A stretch of DNA of 64,000 nucleotides from Escherichia coli O157:H7 (lineage in GTDB: Bacteria; Pseudomonadota; Gammaproteobacteria; Enterobacterales; Enterobacteriaceae), in NCBI RefSeq assembly GCF_013167455.1, contig NZ_CP038328.1, one strand, 5' to 3'. The translations under genes and the position numbers were made by a program. The notes under the pieces were generated by a model that ran no database searches, was not told the DNA's origin, and saw only the letters and a program-made list of their open reading frames with translations. Numbering within the stretch: the stretch's first letter is position 1; each line of letters opens with the position of its first letter. Positions 12,150-52,111 of this stretch are shown here, piece by piece.

Positions 12150-13232
<1,083 letters not shown>

Positions 13233-13354: not shown

Positions 13355-15121
13355 ATGAATAAATCTCGTCAAAAAGAGTTAACCCGCTGGTTAAAACAGC
13401 AAAGCGTCATCTCCCAACGTTGGCTGAATATTTCTCGTCTGCTGGGCTTTGTGAGCGGCATATTGATCATTGCCCAGGCATGGTTCATGGCGCGAATTCT
13501 GCAACATATGATTATGGAGAATATTCCCCGTGAAGCCCTGCTGCTTCCCTTTACGTTACTGGTTCTGACCTTTGTACTGCGCGCATGGGTGGTCTGGTTA
13601 CGCGAACGGGTGGGTTATCACGCCGGGCAGCATATCCGCTTTGCCATCCGCCGTCAGGTTCTCGACCGTCTGCAACAAGCAGGGCCAGCGTGGATTCAGG
13701 GTAAACCTGCGGGGAGCTGGGCGACGCTGGTACTCGAGCAAATTGACGATATGCATGATTACTATGCACGCTACCTGCCGCAAATGGCGCTGGCAGTGTC
13801 GGTGCCGTTGCTGATTGTGGTGGCGATCTTCCCCTCTAACTGGGCTGCGGCGCTCATTCTGCTGGGCACTGCACCGTTAATTCCGTTGTTTATGGCGCTG
13901 GTTGGGATGGGGGCTGCCGATGCTAACCGACGTAACTTTCTCGCTCTTGCTCGCTTAAGTGGGCATTTCCTCGATCGCCTGCGCGGCATGGAAACATTGC
14001 GTATTTTTGGTCGTGGTGAAGCTGAAATTGAAAGTATTCGTTCTGCTTCGGAAGATTTCCGCCAACGGACAATGGAAGTGCTACGGCTGGCGTTTTTATC
14101 CTCCGGCATTCTCGAATTTTTTACCTCGCTGTCAATTGCTCTGGTGGCGGTCTACTTTGGTTTTTCCTATCTCGGCGAGCTGGATTTTGGTCACTACGAT
14201 ACTGGCGTGACGCTGGCTGCGGGTTTTCTGGCCCTGATCCTTGCGCCAGAGTTTTTCCAGCCATTACGCGATCTCGGTACGTTTTATCATGCTAAAGCCC
14301 AGGCTGTTGGTGCAGCTGACAGTCTGAAAACGTTTATGGAAACCCCGCTCGCCCATCCGCAGCGCGGTGAGACGGAATTAGCATCAACCGATCCGCTGAC
14401 CATTGAGGCCGAGGATCTGTTTATCACGTCGCCGGAAGGTAAAACGCTGGCCGGACCGCTGAACTTTACTTTGCCAGCAGGCCAACGTGCAGTGTTGGTT
14501 GGTCGCAGCGGTTCAGGTAAAAGCTCACTGCTGAACGCGCTTTCTGGTTTTCTCTCATATCAGGGATCATTACGAATCAACGGGATAGAATTACGCGATT
14601 TATCACCAGAATCATGGCGTAAACATCTCTCCTGGGTTGGTCAAAACCCACAATTACCGGCAGCAACATTACGGGATAACGTACTACTGGCGCGACCTGA
14701 TGCCAGCGAACAAGAATTACAAGCAGCGCTGGATAACGCCTGGGTCAGCGAGTTTCTACCGCTCCTGCCACAAGGCGTTGATACGCCTGTTGGCGACCAG
14801 GCTGCCCGCCTTTCCGTGGGGCAGGCGCAGCGCGTGGCGGTGGCCCGTGCGTTACTAAATCCCTGTTCGCTATTACTGTTGGATGAACCCGCTGCCAGCC
14901 TTGATGCTCACAGTGAACAGCGCGTAATGGAGGCGCTGAATGCCGCCTCTCTGCGCCAGACAACGTTAATGGTCACCCACCAGTTAGAAGATCTTGCTGA
15001 CTGGGATGTCATTTGGGTTATGCAGGATGGCCGGATTATTGAGCAAGGACGTTACGCGGAATTAAGTGTGGCTGGTGGCCCATTCGCCACATTACTGGCC
15101 CATCGTCAGGAGGAGATTTAA
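13355..15121 (+). CDS. cydD: Glutathione/cysteine ABC exporter subunit CydD
   Basis: 588-aa ORF with N-terminal TM domain and C-terminal ABC ATPase (Walker A GRSGSGKSS, signature LSVGQAQR, Walker B LLLLDEP). Confidence 0.93.
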   Translation: MNKSRQKELTRWLKQQSVISQRWLNISRLLGFVSGILIIAQAWFMARILQHMIMENIPREALLLPFTLLVLTFVLRAWVVWLRERVGYHAGQHIRFAIRRQVLDRLQQAGPAWIQGKPAGSWATLVLEQIDDMHDYYARYLPQMALAVSVPLLIVVAIFPSNWAAALILLGTAPLIPLFMALVGMGAADANRRNFLALARLSGHFLDRLRGMETLRIFGRGEAEIESIRSASEDFRQRTMEVLRLAFLSSGILEFFTSLSIALVAVYFGFSYLGELDFGHYDTGVTLAAGFLALILAPEFFQPLRDLGTFYHAKAQAVGAADSLKTFMETPLAHPQRGETELASTDPLTIEAEDLFITSPEGKTLAGPLNFTLPAGQRAVLVGRSGSGKSSLLNALSGFLSYQGSLRINGIELRDLSPESWRKHLSWVGQNPQLPAATLRDNVLLARPDASEQELQAALDNAWVSEFLPLLPQGVDTPVGDQAARLSVGQAQRVAVARALLNPCSLLLLDEPAASLDAHSEQRVMEALNAASLRQTTLMVTHQLEDLADWDVIWVMQDGRIIEQGRYAELSVAGGPFATLLAHRQEEI

Positions 15122-16843
15122 ATGCGCGCTTTGCTACCCTATCTGGCACTGTATAAACGTCATAAATGGATGTTAAGTCTTGGTATTGTGCTGGCAATTG
15201 TGACGCTGCTCGCCAGTATCGGTCTGTTGACACTTTCCGGCTGGTTCCTCTCGGCCTCAGCGGTTGCGGGGGTTGCCGGACTGTACAGCTTCAACTATAT
15301 GCTACCCGCTGCGGGCGTGCGTGGTGCAGCAATCACCCGTACTGCCGGGCGTTATTTTGAACGTCTGGTAAGTCACGACGCGACTTTCCGCGTGTTGCAG
15401 CATCTGCGCATTTACACCTTCAGCAAATTGTTGCCCCTCTCCCCTGCCGGACTGGCGCGCTATCGTCAGGGCGAATTGCTCAACCGCGTGGTGGCGGATG
15501 TTGATACGCTCGATCATCTTTACCTGCGCGTTATCTCGCCGCTGGTGGGCGCTTTTGTGGTGATTATGGTGGTGACAATCGGGTTAAGTTTCCTTGATTC
15601 CACCCTCGCCTTTACGCTGGGCGGCATTATGTTACTGACGCTTTTCCTGATGCCACCGCTGTTTTATCGTGCGGGAAAAAGCACCGGGCAAAATCTGACT
15701 CATCTTCGCGGACAGTATCGCCAACAACTGACGGCCTGGCTGCAAGGGCAAGCTGAGCTGACCATTTTTGGTGCCAGCGATCGTTATCGCACGCAACTAG
15801 AGAATACAGAAATTCAATGGCTGGAAGCGCAACGCCGTCAATCTGAACTGACCGCATTGTCGCAAGCGATAATGCTGCTCATTGGCGCGTTAGCGGTGAT
15901 CCTGATGCTGTGGATGGCGTCTGGCGGCGTTGGCGGCAATGCTCAACCCGGCGCGTTAATTGCCCTGTTTGTCTTTTGCGCGTTAGCCGCGTTTGAAGCA
16001 CTGGCACCAGTAACGGGTGCATTTCAGCATCTGGGGCAAGTCATTGCCTCTGCCGTACGTATCTCTGACTTAACGGATCAAAAACCGGAGGTCACCTTCC
16101 CTGATACCCAAACTCGTGTTGCCGATCGCGTTTCGCTGACATTACGGGATGTTCAGTTCACTTATCCGGAGCAATCCCAACAGGCACTTAAAGGGATTTC
16201 TCTTCAGGTAAACGCCGGGGAACATATAGCGATTCTCGGGCGAACCGGATGCGGCAAATCAACACTGTTACAACTGCTGACCCGCGCATGGGACCCGCAA
16301 CAGGGCGAGATTTTGCTTAACGATAGCCCCATAGCCAGCCTGAATGAAGCGGCTCTACGACAGACCATCAGCGTTGTTCCTCAGCGAGTGCATCTGTTTA
16401 GCGCCACGCTGCGTGATAATCTGTTACTCGCCTCGCCTGGCAGTAGTGATGAGGCTCTGGCGGTGATCTTACGTCGCGTTGGTCTGGAGAAGCAGCTCGA
16501 GGATGCAGGTCTCAACAGTTGGTTAGGTGAAGGCGGACGCCAGCTCTCCGGTGGTGAACTGCGCCGTCTGGCTATCGCCCGTGCGCTGTTACATGATGCG
16601 CCACTGGTGTTGCTGGATGAACCTACCGAAGGCTTAGATGCCACAACCGAAAGCCAGATCCTTGAATTGCTTGCAGAAATGATGCGTGAGAAAACGGTGT
16701 TAATGGTCACCCATCGACTTCGCGGACTCTCTCGTTTCCAACAAATAATAGTGATGGACAACGGGCAAATTATTGAGCAAGGTACTCACGCAGAACTGCT
16801 TGCCAGACAGGGGCGTTATTACCAGTTCAAGCAGGGTTTGTAA
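15122..16843 (+). CDS. cydC: Glutathione/cysteine ABC exporter subunit CydC
   Basis: 573-aa ORF starting immediately after the cydD stop; Walker A GRTGCGKST, signature LSGGELRR, Walker B LVLLDEP. Confidence 0.93.
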   Translation: MRALLPYLALYKRHKWMLSLGIVLAIVTLLASIGLLTLSGWFLSASAVAGVAGLYSFNYMLPAAGVRGAAITRTAGRYFERLVSHDATFRVLQHLRIYTFSKLLPLSPAGLARYRQGELLNRVVADVDTLDHLYLRVISPLVGAFVVIMVVTIGLSFLDSTLAFTLGGIMLLTLFLMPPLFYRAGKSTGQNLTHLRGQYRQQLTAWLQGQAELTIFGASDRYRTQLENTEIQWLEAQRRQSELTALSQAIMLLIGALAVILMLWMASGGVGGNAQPGALIALFVFCALAAFEALAPVTGAFQHLGQVIASAVRISDLTDQKPEVTFPDTQTRVADRVSLTLRDVQFTYPEQSQQALKGISLQVNAGEHIAILGRTGCGKSTLLQLLTRAWDPQQGEILLNDSPIASLNEAALRQTISVVPQRVHLFSATLRDNLLLASPGSSDEALAVILRRVGLEKQLEDAGLNSWLGEGGRQLSGGELRRLAIARALLHDAPLVLLDEPTEGLDATTESQILELLAEMMREKTVLMVTHRLRGLSRFQQIIVMDNGQIIEQGTHAELLARQGRYYQFKQGL

Positions 16844-46956: not shown

Positions 46957-46984
46957 GCCGGAGTGGGCGAACACCCACTCCGGC
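46957..46984. terminator. Perfect 11-bp GC-rich hairpin between convergent artJ and the accessory sulfatase gene (putative bidirectional terminator)
   Basis: GCCGGAGTGGG-cgaaca-CCCACTCCGGC; lies in the 50-bp gap between the two stop codons; no strong U-run on either side. Confidence 0.45.
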
Positions 46985-46996
46985 AAAATCACTTCT

Positions 46997-48478
46997 CTAC
47001 GCTAATCCCAGGCGCTGAAACTGCTCTGGCGGCGCATCATTATCTTTCATCAACTGAATCAGCAACGCGATCATCCGGGACTCGATCACATCATCATGAA
47101 TCGGATGTAGCTGCTGCGGATCGTTTTGCAGATCAAACAGCAAATGACCAAACTGATTCAACCCCTTATATTTTTCCTGTGCCGGGATGCGTAATACCTG
47201 TAACCCTTTGGTAAAACGAAACGGTGGGGCCAGCGATAAAGCCCGCATCTCATCCACCGGATAGCGGCTGTTCATTTTGCAGGACATCAACGTGTAGTTG
47301 GCAATATCATCCTCACGCCCCGGCAGCGCTGCACGCATATACACATAACGCCCATCAGTTACGTTAGCATGACCACTGAAAACACCAAACATCGCCGAGC
47401 TGCGTACTGGTTCATCGTGACTGACCGTTTTCGCCAGCGGTTGCCCCTGCACATCGGGCGGCACTGGCTGTTGAAAAAAGTCATACAACGTTGGCGCCCA
47501 GTCGATCATTTGTACCAGTGCCTGTCGCCGCTCTCCTTTTACACCACTGCGCGGGTTCCAGATAAACAACGGATTATTGGCAACTTCGTTGTAATAAGGC
47601 ATCTGGTTTTTCGCCCACCAGCCATGCTCACCGAGTAAAAAGCCGTGGTCAGTGCCGACAATCAGCATGGTATCTCGCCACAGATCGTGCTCATCCATCA
47701 GGTCGAGAATGCGCCCCAGGTTGCGATCGCACATCGACACCAGCGAACGATACCGGCAACGGATGTGCTCCACGGCCTCGTCGCTTTCCTGCACCCGGCC
47801 ACGCGGCCAGTCATAATGCGGTCCATCCCAGTTATCTTCATACAAGGAAAGATACTCTTCCGTTGTGTGAAACGGCTCGTGCGGATCAAACGTTTCGATC
47901 TGCAATAACCAGTTATCTTCCGCGTGATTTTTGTGGATAAAGGCACAGCCTGCATCAAACACTTTAGTTTGTGGAAAATCCGCTTCCTGCTGAATATATT
48001 CCCGGTTTGCCCAGTCATGGCGCCACAGACCAGAAACACCGCCACCGGTCTGCTTTTGCGGCACCCGTAGCACCTCGGGAATAGGCGGTTGCGCAACGCT
48101 TGCATGCCAGTGATCGCCTTCCTGTCCGCGCACAATCTCCCACGAACTGTAGCGATTATGATAATTCCCGCCGCCATCTTCCCAGTAATGCAAATGATCG
48201 CTTATCAGGTGGGTATAGATCCCCGCCTTTTTAAGCAGCTCCGGCATGGAATCGTCAAACGGTTCTAACGGCCCCCACTCCCGATGCAGGAAGTTACATC
48301 GCCCGGTATGCAACTCCCGCCGGGCAGGCATACACGGCATACTGCCGACGTAACTGTTTTCAAAGGTGGCGGCATGAGCCGCCAGACGTTGGAAATTAGG
48401 CGCTTTGGTTAACGCATCGCCATAAGGTGGCAGATAACGTTTATTCAGACTATCGAACAGCAGAATAATCGCTCTCAT
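46997..48478 (-). CDS. Accessory Cys-type sulfatase-family protein (alkaline-phosphatase superfamily), predicted cytoplasmic
   Basis: 493-aa ORF; sulfatase signature C49-M-P-A-R53 followed by RELHTGRC; no N-terminal signal peptide; last gene of a three-gene minus-strand cluster. Confidence 0.85.
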   Translation of the reverse strand: MRAIILLFDSLNKRYLPPYGDALTKAPNFQRLAAHAATFENSYVGSMPCMPARRELHTGRCNFLHREWGPLEPFDDSMPELLKKAGIYTHLISDHLHYWEDGGGNYHNRYSSWEIVRGQEGDHWHASVAQPPIPEVLRVPQKQTGGGVSGLWRHDWANREYIQQEADFPQTKVFDAGCAFIHKNHAEDNWLLQIETFDPHEPFHTTEEYLSLYEDNWDGPHYDWPRGRVQESDEAVEHIRCRYRSLVSMCDRNLGRILDLMDEHDLWRDTMLIVGTDHGFLLGEHGWWAKNQMPYYNEVANNPLFIWNPRSGVKGERRQALVQMIDWAPTLYDFFQQPVPPDVQGQPLAKTVSHDEPVRSSAMFGVFSGHANVTDGRYVYMRAALPGREDDIANYTLMSCKMNSRYPVDEMRALSLAPPFRFTKGLQVLRIPAQEKYKGLNQFGHLLFDLQNDPQQLHPIHDDVIESRMIALLIQLMKDNDAPPEQFQRLGLA

Positions 48479-48489
48479 TACGCCCTACC

Positions 48490-48810
48490 TTATTGATTAA
48501 TTAAATGCGGAAAATGTTGCTGAACCACTTCATAAATTTGCTGACCAATAGTTTCACCGTCCATAATATTCTCTATCGGAATCAAATATTGCCCTTGTTT
48601 CGGGTCAAGACTAACCACATCGAGTAATTTTTTGGAAATAGCAAAAATATCCGCCCAGTCGGTAAATCCGCCGACTTCACCTGCGGCGGTATGTTCCATT
48701 TCAACTTTGAAATCATATTTGGTCAGCGCTTTTTTAACGACCGTTTGTAACATAACGCTACTGCCTACACCGTAACCACAGACAAACAGAATATTAATTG
48801 TATCTTTCAT
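48490..48810 (-). CDS. Accessory PTS EIIB component, L-ascorbate (UlaB/SgaB)-like family
   Basis: 106-aa ORF MKDTINILFVCGYGVGSSVM... with the CGxGxGSS phospho-cysteine loop characteristic of ascorbate-family EIIB. Confidence 0.8.
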   Translation of the reverse strand: MKDTINILFVCGYGVGSSVMLQTVVKKALTKYDFKVEMEHTAAGEVGGFTDWADIFAISKKLLDVVSLDPKQGQYLIPIENIMDGETIGQQIYEVVQQHFPHLINQ

Positions 48811-48831
48811 TTTTAAACCCTTAATATTTAA

Positions 48832-50175
48832 TTAACCCGCGTAAGGACCAAGATGGAATGTTGCAGCGATAAATTTCAGAACTTCACAAATAGCAGGCCA
48901 TACGGTTGCCCAGTCAAATATTCCTGTCCAGCCGACGCCATTTTCAGCAAGCCCGGTTAACGGAATAGCCCACACCGTACCGAAGGTCTGAATAATACCC
49001 AGCAAGAACGTACAGATAATTACGGAACGGTATCCGCCCATGCGGTTTGCTAATACGCCAATTGGACCGCCAGAGAAAAACAGAGGTACAAAGCCAGGCA
49101 ATACCATAATTGGGCTGTGAACCAGTAATAAGATCCCCATCGAAAAAATGGTGCCAAAAGTACAGAAGACGAAGCCTAACGTTGCGGCATTGGGTGAAAA
49201 AGGTAACAGCGCTGCAACATCGACAGCAGGAATAGCGTTAGGAATAAAGCGATCTTGCCAGCCTTTAAACGAACCGTTAATTTCGCCCACCATCATGCGC
49301 ACACCCTGCAGCAGAATGACCATATACATGGAGAACTGTAAGCCAAGGTTGATGATATAGATGTACCAGGGCTTGCCTTTCGCCATTAACTGGACATTAT
49401 CGATACCCGTTGATAGCAAGAAACCACCGACAAACAGCGTCATCACAATGGCGATAGCCGTTACGTTATGGTTAAAAATCGCCAGCCACCCGGGAAGTTT
49501 CAGGTTTTCAGCATCGTGCTTTTCAGGGTCACCAAATTTATGGGCGAATTTGGAGAAAAACCACAATCCCAACATCTGGTTATGAGCAATGGTAAAACCG
49601 GCATCTTTGGTAACTTTGGCAATGGGCTTAACAATGAGCGTGGTGGAGAACGCCCAGAATACACCCGTTAATATTCCGGCAATAATAATGGATGTAGTCC
49701 AGCTAAAACCCAGCCAAAAGACAATCAACCATAATACCGCCTGAGAATGTGAAACACCGGTATTCCCTGTCAAAAATATCCCTTTGGCACCAGTATACCG
49801 ACCAAATAATACCAGCAGCAGGTTGGTAAAAAACGCCAGTACAAATACATACCCGACATAACCAAAATTATCCCCCAATGCAATTTGCGTTGCCGCTTTC
49901 ATTGCGTAGGAATCCATTAAATATCCGTGAACACCATAGGCTTTACTTACGGCTTCTGCTACCGGTTTAAATGTTGCGGAAAACTGGAAACCACCAAATA
50001 ACACCATCATTAATCCCACCATGGCGCTGACCATGCCGGTAATAATTTTTATTGGCGATTTCTTATCAAGGGCATAACCAATACCCACCAGCAAACCAAT
50101 TAAAATTGCCGGTTCAGTTAAAAACGTTTGAATAACATCTATGAATTTGGCAAACATCGTCGGAACGCCCTCCAT
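48832..50175 (-). CDS. Accessory PTS EIIC permease, L-ascorbate (UlaA/SgaT)-like family
   Basis: 447-aa polytopic membrane ORF; N-terminal third resembles recalled UlaA (e.g. ...FKPVAEAVSKAYGVHGYLMDSYAMKA... versus UlaA ...[27 protein letters not shown]...); an alternative start at the Met 6 codons downstream has a better GGAGG Shine-Dalgarno. Confidence 0.85.
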   Translation of the reverse strand: MEGVPTMFAKFIDVIQTFLTEPAILIGLLVGIGYALDKKSPIKIITGMVSAMVGLMMVLFGGFQFSATFKPVAEAVSKAYGVHGYLMDSYAMKAATQIALGDNFGYVGYVFVLAFFTNLLLVLFGRYTGAKGIFLTGNTGVSHSQAVLWLIVFWLGFSWTTSIIIAGILTGVFWAFSTTLIVKPIAKVTKDAGFTIAHNQMLGLWFFSKFAHKFGDPEKHDAENLKLPGWLAIFNHNVTAIAIVMTLFVGGFLLSTGIDNVQLMAKGKPWYIYIINLGLQFSMYMVILLQGVRMMVGEINGSFKGWQDRFIPNAIPAVDVAALLPFSPNAATLGFVFCTFGTIFSMGILLLVHSPIMVLPGFVPLFFSGGPIGVLANRMGGYRSVIICTFLLGIIQTFGTVWAIPLTGLAENGVGWTGIFDWATVWPAICEVLKFIAATFHLGPYAG

Positions 50176-50365
50176 ACGCGTACATTTCCGTTGTCAATGC
50201 ATGAACCTTCTGCTGACGTTAATAATGTCTCAGGAAATTTTGTGTTTCGCTAAGCAATGCCTCTGTATGTATTCGGTAAGTGCACTGTAGTAATCAAAAC
50301 AGTTCAATTAAAGATCTTATTTGATTATTTGTGATTTGATTTGCAAAAATAGAGCAATATATAAC

Positions 50366-50401
50366 CGTGATCGATCGGTTATTATTAATCGATCGATCAC
50401 G
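50366..50401. promoter_or_regulatory. Perfect 12-bp inverted repeat with 12-nt AT spacer upstream of the accessory PTS cluster (candidate operator or RNA structure)
   Basis: CGTGATCGATCG-gttattattaat-CGATCGATCACG, about 190-225 nt upstream of the EIIC start and 54-89 nt downstream of the rlmC stop. Confidence 0.35.
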
Positions 50402-50454
50402 ATTATTATTTTGGATGGATGTATGCCGAGGTGATATTGATTTGAATGATGTAT

Positions 50455-51582
50455 TTACATTTTTACCAGCAGCGTCAGCACTTCATAGTGCGCGGTGTGC
50501 GGGAACATATCAAAAAGCTGTACCCGTTCGATGCGGTAACCTGGCAGTTCGCGGATATCTTTCGCCATGGTTTGGGCGTTACAGCTGGAGTAGATAATAA
50601 AACGCGGTGCCATCGTTGAGAGATAATCACACAGCGGTTTACCAATGCCGCGGCGCGGCGGGTTAACCAGCACCAGCTCCGGCACCTCCCCCTGAGCGGT
50701 GGCAAACTGAGTGGAGTCCAGCGCCTGAAATTGCAGACGCGTTAAGCCCAGTTCAGCGGCTGACTGCTTTGCACAGGCAATGGCCTCTAGCGCAATTTCG
50801 ATCCCGGTTAACTGCATGTCAGGCGTCGCGCAGTGTAAACCAAAGCCCCCCACACCGCAGAACAGATCCCACATATGTTTAACCGGCAGCTGTCGTACCC
50901 AGTCGCGCGCGGTAGCGTACAGCTGGCTGGCGACCGCCGGATTAGTCTGGAAGAAACTTTGCGGACGGATCCACAGCGGCACATCGTTAAAACGCTCTAC
51001 CAGCGCCTGTTGTTCGGTCAGGTAGATCTCCGTCTCCCCTTCCATAATCGCCATATGTACCGGCTGAATATTGACGGTGATAACTTTTAGCTGCGGCAAT
51101 TGTGCCTGTAACCACGGCAATGCCTTACGCAGTTGTGCTAGTTTGGTTTCAGAACGCAGTACAAAGCGCAGCATCATGCCGCCATCGCTCTGGCTTTCAG
51201 TCAGCAGAATGTATTTCAGTTCGCCACGCTTACGCGCCACGTTGTAGGGCGTTAACCCCGCTCGGGCGATAAACGGTTTTAGCGCCGCAAAAACGGGCGC
51301 AAATGAGGCAGGATAAAGCGGGCAGTCACAAAGGTCTTCCGGTGTGCCGTCGCGATGCAGCATACCGAGCAGTGGTTTTTCAACGCTACCACTCACCACC
51401 ATTTTGGCTTTATTACGAAACCCTTGTTCCGGGCCTGACACCGGCGCGCACCATTCCTCAACCGGAAAGTCGGCGAGCAGATTTTTAAGATCGGCGGTTT
51501 TAGCGGAGAGTTGCTCTGGAATCGGCTGCGTTATCCACTGACAGGAACGACAGCGACCCGCGTCGTAAAGTGCGCACTGCAT
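50455..51582 (-). CDS. rlmC: 23S rRNA (uracil747-C5)-methyltransferase RlmC (RumB)
   Basis: 375-aa [28 protein letters not shown]... with N-terminal Cys cluster and SAM-dependent methyltransferase core. Confidence 0.93.
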
Positions 51583-51622
51583 ACATTGACCTTCACATCA
51601 TCAGGGGCGACGATTATACACA

Positions 51623-52111
51623 TTATTGCAACTGGAAGAACCGCCGACTGGTCGAGGGAACGAACAGCAGCATCAGGATGAGCATATCCGGCAGCTTCTG
51701 CAGCATCAGGCTATGGAAGATTTCACGTTTTGATTCACCGGGAATGCTGAACAGCTCCGGATAACCGTACCCCAGCGAAGCCGCCCACAAGTAACTTGCG
51801 GCAGTGATTTGTGTCAGCAGATACAGCCAGCGCGCCCAGCGACGCCCTTTCACCAGTGAAAACGCACACCAGATCTCAATGAAAACCAGCACCAGACTGC
51901 TTAAAAAGACCAGCGTTAAACTCCAGGTTTGTACGCTGCGATGAATGAACTCGCCAATACCGCGCACGCCCAGCGTATTGAAAATCATCAGCACGTCGAG
52001 GCCACGGATCATAATAATGGCGAGCGCCGCCACCTGCACAAGCGCAGGCACATTCAGGCGAGCATGAGATGAAGATGTTTTCTTAAAAAATCCCAACGTT
52101 TCGTCTTCCAT
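51623..52111 (-). CDS. ybjO: Inner-membrane protein YbjO
   Basis: 162-aa hydrophobic ORF at the conserved position between potI and rlmC. Confidence 0.85.
   Translation of the reverse strand: MEDETLGFFKKTSSSHARLNVPALVQVAALAIIMIRGLDVLMIFNTLGVRGIGEFIHRSVQTWSLTLVFLSSLVLVFIEIWCAFSLVKGRRWARWLYLLTQITAASYLWAASLGYGYPELFSIPGESKREIFHSLMLQKLPDMLILMLLFVPSTSRRFFQLQ

Follow-up and report, generated by a model that had tools for sequence, protein, structure and literature searches.

We analysed a stretch of 64,000 nucleotides from Escherichia coli O157:H7 (contig NZ_CP038328.1; hereafter, the window), and concentrated on a set of three genes between rlmC and artJ. Two of these encode components of a phosphotransferase system (PTS) of the L-ascorbate family, enzyme IIC (EIIC) and enzyme IIB (EIIB), and the third encodes a sulfatase. 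All three open reading frames (ORFs) lie on the minus strand:

48832–50175, minus strand: EIIC permease, PTS L-ascorbate family (447 aa as annotated)
48490–48810, minus strand: UlaB-like EIIB (106 aa)
46997–48478, minus strand: cytoplasmic Cys-type (formylglycine) sulfatase (493 aa)

The ORFs are closely packed, with gaps of 21 nt between the EIIC and EIIB genes and 11 nt between the EIIB and sulfatase genes. We therefore read the trio as a single operon. Positions 46000–51700 of the window are 100% identical to the corresponding region of many O157:H7 genomes. In the RefSeq annotation of an identical O157:H7 chromosome, the only genes between artJ and rlmC are those for a sulfatase, a IIB and a IIC, each annotated generically. 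The corresponding Sakai locus tags are ECs0940–0942, a numbering inferred from ECs0943 being artJ. The counterpart in Salmonella LT2 comprises STM0884, labelled 'ulaA', and its two downstream neighbours. In the literature searched, both sets occur as list entries only, and no function has been proposed for the trio.

Comparative sequence analysis placed the EIIC in Pfam family PF03611 (EIIC-GAT; E = 4e-97, residues 18–412) and in the NCBIfam equivalog NF009550, against which it scored 964 bits (cutoff, 583). Its scores against the ascorbate IIC models NF006919 and NF007094 were 321–354 bits, under their cutoffs, its matches to ascorbate IIBC models were likewise below threshold, and the score against the E. 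coli UlaA-type model was just 130 bits. The protein is 95% identical to its Salmonella counterpart. After the enterics, the next-closest EIICs share 56–72% identity and occur in Firmicutes and a few other phyla; for the EIICs linked to a sulfatase in Firmicutes, the range is 56–69%. The EIIB matched PF02302 (PTS_IIB) with an E-value of 8e-11 and the UlaB model NF007586 with 43.6 bits. It possesses the loop FVCGYGVGSS, in which CGYGVGSS corresponds to residues 11–18 (nt 48757–48780). An earlier note on this DNA had described the CGxGxGSS phospho-Cys loop as intact. The loop is indeed present, and it is invariant across six enterobacterial genera, all of which lack an EIIA beside the module.

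The sulfatase matched PF00884 (E = 4e-28). Because this domain begins at residue 4, we concluded that the protein has no signal peptide. The formylglycine motif, CMPAR, occupies residues 49–53 (nt 48320–48334); its C, P and R are invariant in five aligned orthologues, with x being M or I. Identity to Firmicute orthologues is 62–64%. No close homologue of the sulfatase was found among solved structures, in which the best matches were either partial or to choline sulfatases, the latter being the best full-length matches.

Two further features of the EIIC gene were observed. The annotated start, the ATG at 50175, is probably wrong. A second ATG at 50157 is preceded 11 nt earlier by GGAGG (50155–50175, minus strand), and the Silvania and Leclercia orthologues begin at the Met equivalent to 50157 (MF..F..). 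Initiation at 50157 would yield a protein of 441 aa. In addition, a sigma-54-like sequence, TGGCACCATTTTTTCGAT, occurs inside the gene at 49139–49156 (minus strand). An intragenic RpoN-binding site has been reported in Salmonella STM0884 (PMC3844500), and TGGCACCATTTTTTCGAT is its counterpart, with 3 mismatches; a match of equal stringency was obtained in 10 of 100 shuffled sequences.

Search for an EIIA

The earlier note had claimed that this cluster encodes EIIC and EIIB but no EIIA, and had allowed for a small EIIA ORF that was overlooked. We prepared a profile hidden Markov model (HMM) from UlaC and 13 EIIAs linked to related modules, described below. With filters off, this HMM was searched against all six-frame, stop-to-stop ORFs of at least 30 aa in the window and in all loci fetched. 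At a threshold of E ≤ 10, neither the 64-kb window nor any of the enterobacterial loci, which came from eight enterobacterial species and Salmonella contigs, gave a match. All known EIIAs were retrieved by this HMM with E-values of 1e-48 to 1e-61, and even the divergent EIIA domains within PRD regulators were detected, at 1e-10. Together with the domain matches and the RefSeq annotation, these data bear out the claim: the cognate PF00359 EIIA of a UlaABC-type complex is absent from the trio, and no small EIIA ORF is hidden within the cluster. We have very little doubt that the EIIC/EIIB pair without a cognate EIIA is real.

A potential donor is encoded elsewhere on E. coli chromosomes. The ulaB-ulaC genes were present in 5422 of 5426 E. 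coli genomes, and the copy in O157:H7 EDL933 was 99.6% identical.

Distribution of the module and its link to ula genes

The trio was present in 566 of 5426 complete E. coli genomes. It occurred in a single copy, was always chromosomal, and in each of the 566 genomes spanned at least 80% of the query. Two alleles were apparent: 411 genomes (O157:H7, O145 and others) carried a version at least 99% identical to that of O157, and 155 carried one that was ∼91% identical. This divergence suggests either an old polymorphism or separate acquisitions. In one E. coli strain, the module contained an IS1 insertion. The artJ–rlmC spacer of K-12 is 198 bp long and resembles repetitive extragenic palindromic (REP) DNA. 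We considered whether this spacer is a deletion scar and rejected the idea, as no recognisable remnant of the module was found in it.

The rlmC–artJ site also harbours the trio in other enterics, namely Salmonella enterica (with subspecies arizonae and diarizonae), cryptic Escherichia species and Yokenella. The synteny with Salmonella and Yokenella favours ancestry of the module at this site. In Silvania and Leclercia, the trio occupies another chromosomal position. More specifically, the module of Leclercia sp. 29361 (locus L014, 4434–7839) lies downstream of a divergent gene for an arylsulfotransferase (ASST) and of one for a radical S-adenosylmethionine (SAM)/SPASM protein, and the Silvania setting (L013) is similar; by gene content, this would be a sulfate-ester neighbourhood. 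The enteric clusters examined contained neither an EIIA nor a regulator. Similarly, no clear maturase gene was found in the cluster of the window or in those of the enteric genomes examined. E. coli possesses homologues of anaerobic sulfatase-maturating enzymes (anSMEs), namely AslB and YdeM.

The genes of the module are under strong purifying selection. The ratio of nonsynonymous to synonymous substitution rates (dN/dS) of EIIB was 0.03 with respect to E. whittamii; against more distant genera, dN was 0.08–0.15 and dS was saturated. For the sulfatase, dN/dS was 0.04–0.06. Overall, all three genes had values of 0.01–0.06 where dS was measurable, dS being saturated between genera, and the ORFs of the trio were intact in six genera. 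The low dN/dS and the invariant Cys loop make it unlikely that the trio is undergoing decay or that its permease works independently of phosphorylation, with the EIIB as a vestige.

We scanned for sulfatases using an alignment of five orthologues (62–86% identical to the window protein), with one genome per species, and obtained 80 loci. The six-frame ORFs of these loci were compared with a reference set of proteins, among them the products of the K-12 ula genes, using a neighbourhood of 10 kb. Of 39 species genomes with a sulfatase sharing at least ∼60% identity (38 with ≥60%, and L036 with 57%), 34 encoded it directly after EIIC–EIIB. The other 41 loci, all below 60% identity, showed no linkage to a PTS. 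The EIIB gene adjoined the EIIC gene in all 34 PTS-linked genomes, which comprised 8 enteric genomes, none with an EIIA, and 26 non-enteric ones. Among the latter, a PF00359-type EIIA occurred within 10 kb of 12 modules, and 14 modules had no EIIA nearby. For the 16 modules flanked by 8 kb or more of sequence on each side, the corresponding counts were 9 and 7. Local absence of an EIIA is therefore common for this module and is not a peculiarity of E. coli. The earlier note had called the lack of an EIIA unusual, and this was overstated; the absence is not unusual in itself, and what is new is the coupling to a sulfatase and the predicted substrate. For annotation purposes, the census shows that a PTS should not be taken for defunct when its EIIA is missing.

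The neighbourhoods of the non-enteric modules provide further information. A DeoR-family regulator was encoded near 20 of the 26 modules. A radical-SAM/SPASM maturase or a formylglycine-generating enzyme (FGE) was adjacent in 10 of the 26, indicating that the enzyme is a genuine formylglycine sulfatase. In five of the 26, ula catabolic genes were present within 10 kb, and in four of these five they included that of UlaG, the L-ascorbate-6-phosphate lactonase. Of seven module-linked EIIAs tested, five scored best against the UlaC model NF007694 and two scored marginally better against CmtB. All five of the non-enteric modules that were nearest by EIIC identity had an EIIA. In the two nearest, from Neobacillus and Bacillus sp. 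SD088, the module was in one cluster with UlaG, UlaD, UlaE and UlaF.

In Neobacillus niacini, the operon encodes, in order, EIIA, EIIC, EIIB, the sulfatase, UlaG, a IIB, UlaD, UlaE, UlaF and HPr, with an FGE and a PRD regulator upstream. In Bacillus sp. SD088, a UlaF-UlaE-UlaD-UlaG-EIIA-DeoR operon is divergent from EIIC-EIIB-sulfatase. In Olsenella and in a metagenome-assembled genome (MAG) of the Oscillospiraceae, UlaG, UlaE and UlaF are encoded within 10 kb of the module, and in the MAG the EIIA gene adjoins that of UlaG, not that of the permease. In Bacillus sp. SD088 and the Oscillospiraceae MAG, the EIIA gene thus groups with those for ula catabolism and not with EIIC-EIIB-sulfatase, the same division as that proposed below for E. 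coli. In the ula-linked clusters, the sulfatase-linked EIIC was the sole EIIC within 10 kb. The UlaG proteins of four PTS-linked lineages, and that of a Clostridium locus without a PTS (L029), scored 540–653 bits against an equivalog cutoff of 306. UlaD, UlaE and UlaF of Neobacillus, where they were tested, also matched their models. Together, the UlaC-like EIIAs, maturases and ascorbate-6-phosphate enzymes of the related clusters suggest a particular substrate and a particular donor for the module.

Two of these clusters merit separate description. The sulfatase-ula operon of Neobacillus niacini (L005/L024) contains a second, divergent EIIB gene (12307–12600) and its own HPr gene (14923–15189), a composition that suggests a dedicated phosphorelay branch. 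In two Clostridium genomes (L029/L033, 1000–11500), an orthologous, 63%-identical sulfatase has no PTS nearby and is encoded with a TctA-type transporter, UlaG and UlaF, as well as a sugar epimerase, a split transketolase and a GntR regulator. This cluster may represent a PTS-independent variant of the pathway, in which case a kinase would be required.

Predicted substrate and phosphoryl donor

To consider the substrate of the permease, we took 15 ligand-contact and pivot residues of UlaA from the published work (PMC6048161) and checked them in 34 distinct module EIICs. Seven sites were the same in all 34 proteins: G58, Y87, H194, G286, R288, D314 and F362. One more, M410, was kept in 25. R288 of UlaA is required for UlaB-dependent transfer (PMC6048161). 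By contrast, three substitutions, H135N, Q195N and S59G, occurred in all 34 proteins; smaller residues were present at positions 136 (I136A/T/S) and 139 (Q139A/S), and T86 was replaced by S (or P). These data suggest a pocket for a related but non-identical substrate, one that would be roomier for an ascorbate-like ligand. The smaller residues at 135, 136, 139 and 195, with Y87, H194, D314, R288 and F362 kept, are compatible with a bulkier ascorbate derivative. The argument is only suggestive.

These results are consistent with the hypothesis that the trio is a plug-in module for the uptake and desulfation of a sulfated ascorbate, with UlaC as the EIIA donor. We put the probability of this reading, which was derived from sequence comparisons, at roughly 0.5. 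The substrate would most likely be L-ascorbate 2-sulfate. This compound is a commonly detected mammalian metabolite, and it keeps the O6 hydroxyl that is phosphorylated by the PTS. Phosphoryl groups would pass from enzyme I and HPr to a trans-encoded EIIA of the mannitol/fructose/ascorbate type and from there to Cys11 of the EIIB; UlaC of the core ula regulon is the first candidate for this EIIA and CmtB the second. The EIIC would import the sulfated substrate, with phosphorylation at O6. The cytoplasmic formylglycine sulfatase would then strip the sulfate, converting ascorbate-2-sulfate 6-phosphate to L-ascorbate 6-phosphate, which would be degraded by UlaG, UlaD, UlaE and UlaF, encoded elsewhere. 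L-Ascorbate 6-phosphate would also inactivate the UlaR repressor, raising the level of UlaC. In this scheme, the inferred parts are what is transported, which EIIA acts as the donor and in what order the reactions proceed. The scheme agrees with the suggestion in the earlier note that the permease feeds the sulfatase.

Several points weigh against this proposal. The module is dispensable to the species in that ∼90% of E. coli genomes do not carry it. Genes of the ula pathway were found within 10 kb of only 5 of the 26 non-enteric PTS-linked loci, and permeases of the ascorbate family often adjoin ula genes in any case. The EIIC is only distantly related to UlaA, with a score of 130 bits, so compatibility of UlaC with the module EIIB is not assured. 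An accessory EIIA encoded elsewhere in the O157 genome may also be the donor. Finally, we compared the module promoter with the ulaG–ulaA intergenic region of K-12. The best local alignment had a score of 24, which was matched by 28 of 300 shuffled sequences. As this similarity was not above that of the shuffles, co-regulation of the module by UlaR, and hence membership in the UlaR regulon, is unsupported.

The earlier note had offered two explanations for the missing EIIA: a donor encoded elsewhere or a permease that does not phosphorylate its substrate. Our data favour the former, and we consider it likely that a trans-encoded EIIA serves the module EIIB. That donor could be an EIIA other than UlaC, with the substrate perhaps being some other sulfated sugar or sugar acid. 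The candidates are CmtB, PtsN, the IIA domains of MtlA, FruB and FryA, GatA, SgcA, FrvA, or an accessory EIIA of O157 or Salmonella. Consistent with this alternative, two of the seven module-linked EIIAs had their slightly better score against the CmtB model, 21 of the 26 non-enteric PTS-linked loci had no ula genes within 10 kb, and the arylsulfotransferase and radical-SAM/SPASM genes beside the Leclercia module form a general sulfate-ester context. Nevertheless, the nearest relatives of the enteric module lie inside complete ula clusters, the orthology of their UlaG is firm, most module EIIAs are UlaC-like, and the EIIC pocket retains most of the ascorbate-contacting residues. On balance, we consider a donor other than UlaC rather unlikely.

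The second explanation of the earlier note fared less well. A non-phosphorylating permease, acting as a facilitator or secondary carrier, would supply the sulfatase with the unphosphorylated sulfate ester, and the EIIB would be vestigial or regulatory. No enteric genome examined had a local EIIA, as this explanation would have it, and Hvorup and co-workers are said to have proposed in 2003 that some SgaT homologues without IIA and IIB are secondary carriers. The module EIIC, however, is accompanied by an adjacent EIIB in every one of the 34 PTS-linked genomes, and R288 is invariant. Moreover, the Cys loop has stayed invariant and the EIIB strongly selected in lineages whose lack of an EIIA is older than the divergence of Escherichia from Salmonella. 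We therefore regard a non-phosphorylating permease as improbable. It is just as doubtful that the module is what remains, without function, of a Firmicute-type operon that was gained by horizontal transfer and is being lost from E. coli. Such loss could account for the absence of the module from ∼90% of complete E. coli genomes, the REP-like DNA at the K-12 site, the IS1 insertion in one strain, and the want of a local regulator, EIIA and maturase in the enteric versions. A remnant would nevertheless not be expected to span at least 80% of the query in 566 of 566 E. coli copies, to keep its ORFs intact in six genera and its promoter block conserved in five, or to evolve with dN/dS values of 0.01–0.06 over distances at which dS is saturated between genera.

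If the proposal of a sulfated-ascorbate module served by UlaC is correct, it provides a substrate and a pathway for a gene set that is conserved in O157:H7 and Salmonella and shared with many gut Firmicutes. Ascorbate 2-sulfate, a metabolite that is stable and comes from the host, would be a source of carbon and sulfur for enteric pathogens. A subfamily of cytoplasmic sulfatases would act on a sugar-acid phosphate. The module would also be a natural case in which a single EIIA supplies two ascorbate-family permeases and, as such, a clean genetic system for the study of EIIA sharing. In its broadest form, which we advance tentatively and hold with somewhat less confidence than the proposal for the enteric trio, the hypothesis describes a widespread bacterial pathway for L-ascorbate 2-sulfate: import and 6-phosphorylation by a PTS, desulfation by a new subfamily of cytoplasmic sulfatases and degradation by UlaG, UlaD, UlaE and UlaF. 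O157:H7 and Salmonella would possess a reduced, three-gene form that relies on UlaC and Ula enzymes encoded megabases away.

Regulatory region, flanking features and known systems

The region upstream of the trio and the sequences that flank it contain the following features:

50176–50454, minus strand: putative promoter/regulatory region of the trio
50330–50345, minus strand: candidate CRP-like box TGCAAatcaaaTCACA (TGCAA-N6-TCACA)
50291–50327, minus strand: candidate inverted repeat TAATCAAA...TTTGATTA
50284–50289, minus strand: candidate −10-like sequence TACAGT
50366–50401: near-perfect palindrome of 36 nt, CGTGATCGATCG-N-CGATCGATCACG, directly after the 3' end of rlmC, on the upstream side of the candidate promoter
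50455–51582, minus strand: rlmC, flanking the trio
46164–46946, plus strand: artJ, flanking the trio and convergent with the sulfatase gene
46957–46984: GC-rich stem-loop GCCGGAGTGGG / CCCACTCCGGC, read from the sequence, between the convergent artJ and sulfatase genes

The candidate −10 sequence would centre the CRP-like box near −61. The stretch bounded by the CRP-like box and the −10 sequence is conserved in Escherichia, Salmonella, Silvania, Leclercia and Yokenella, with the half-sites kept and the spacers varying. Words of the TTTGATTA type are common to the module promoter and the ulaG–ulaA control region, as expected by chance in AT-rich DNA. The palindrome at 50366–50401 is kept in Escherichia and Salmonella but missing from genomes in which different genes flank the module; it may be a terminator of rlmC or a protein-binding site. 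A generic promoter and terminator scan of 46900–50500 yielded nothing above chance, and flagged this palindrome only on the strand opposite to rlmC. The stem-loop at 46957–46984 is a candidate for a terminator shared by artJ and the sulfatase gene. This assignment is tentative because a T-run is absent on both sides.

Two observations concern DNA outside the trio. The GC content of the window falls sharply to 0.32 at 39900–41699 (minus strand; within 40001–42000), as compared to ∼0.51 for the remainder. The drop coincides with a pentapeptide-repeat gene that is frameshifted and lies between ybjQ and ybjP; this is probably a pseudogene that was acquired horizontally and separately. In the reference O157 genome NZ_AP018488.1, an element with integrase, primase and capsid genes lies between cspD and clpS (1031452–1039655; L091, 21453–29656). 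This small element is satellite-phage-like.

Of the known systems, E. coli UlaABC (SgaTBA; TC 4.A.7) is the natural point of comparison. It has in common with the module the PF03611 fold of the EIIC and a UlaB-type EIIB with an N-terminal Cys loop, and UlaA residues G58, Y87, H194, G286, R288, D314 and F362 are kept in the module EIIC. By contrast, the module lacks an EIIA, a regulator and catabolic genes, and includes a sulfatase in the predicted operon. Its EIIC also belongs to a different NCBIfam equivalog, NF009550, and has replacements at H135, I136, Q139 and Q195. The Firmicute clusters are closer relatives: those of Neobacillus niacini (L005/L024), Bacillus sp. SD088 (L026), Streptococcus pacificus (L006/L053) and an Erysipelotrichaceae genome (L007) are orthologous and have the same EIIC-EIIB-sulfatase order. 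Their sulfatases are 62–64% identical to that of the window and their EIICs 62–69%, L007 being outside the EIIC comparison. Unlike the enteric trio, these clusters include a UlaC-like EIIA, a DeoR, PRD or SorC regulator, and an anSME or FGE, with the whole UlaG/D/E/F set in two cases.

Coupling of a PTS to a sulfatase has precedents. In Streptococcus pneumoniae, SPH1922–1929 encode a lactose-type PTS with a sulfatase and a sulfatase-modifying enzyme (PMC3302838). As in the module, a PTS is coupled to an intracellular sulfatase, but this system is of the Lac family and has its own EIIA. In Sebaldella termitidis, a sulfatase gene is inserted in the ula regulon (PMC3219644), a genetic coupling of PTS and sulfatase that resembles the module by gene context. 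The literature searched yielded no instance of bacterial use of ascorbate 2-sulfate, the papers found being metabolomics studies.

Dependence on a separately encoded EIIA is also familiar. The E. coli IIBC permeases TreB and MalX obtain phosphoryl groups via Crr. Like the module, PtsG, TreB and MalX are encoded in operons without an EIIA and have their donor at another locus. These are, however, IICB proteins of the glucose family that use EIIA-Glc (PF00358), whereas the module is of the L-ascorbate family, for which the expected donor is of the PF00359 type; EIIA sharing within the L-ascorbate family was not found in the literature searched. Overall, an EIIC/EIIB pair without an EIIA is a known situation, and what is new is a sulfatase-coupled module of the L-ascorbate family that probably depends on Ula proteins in trans.

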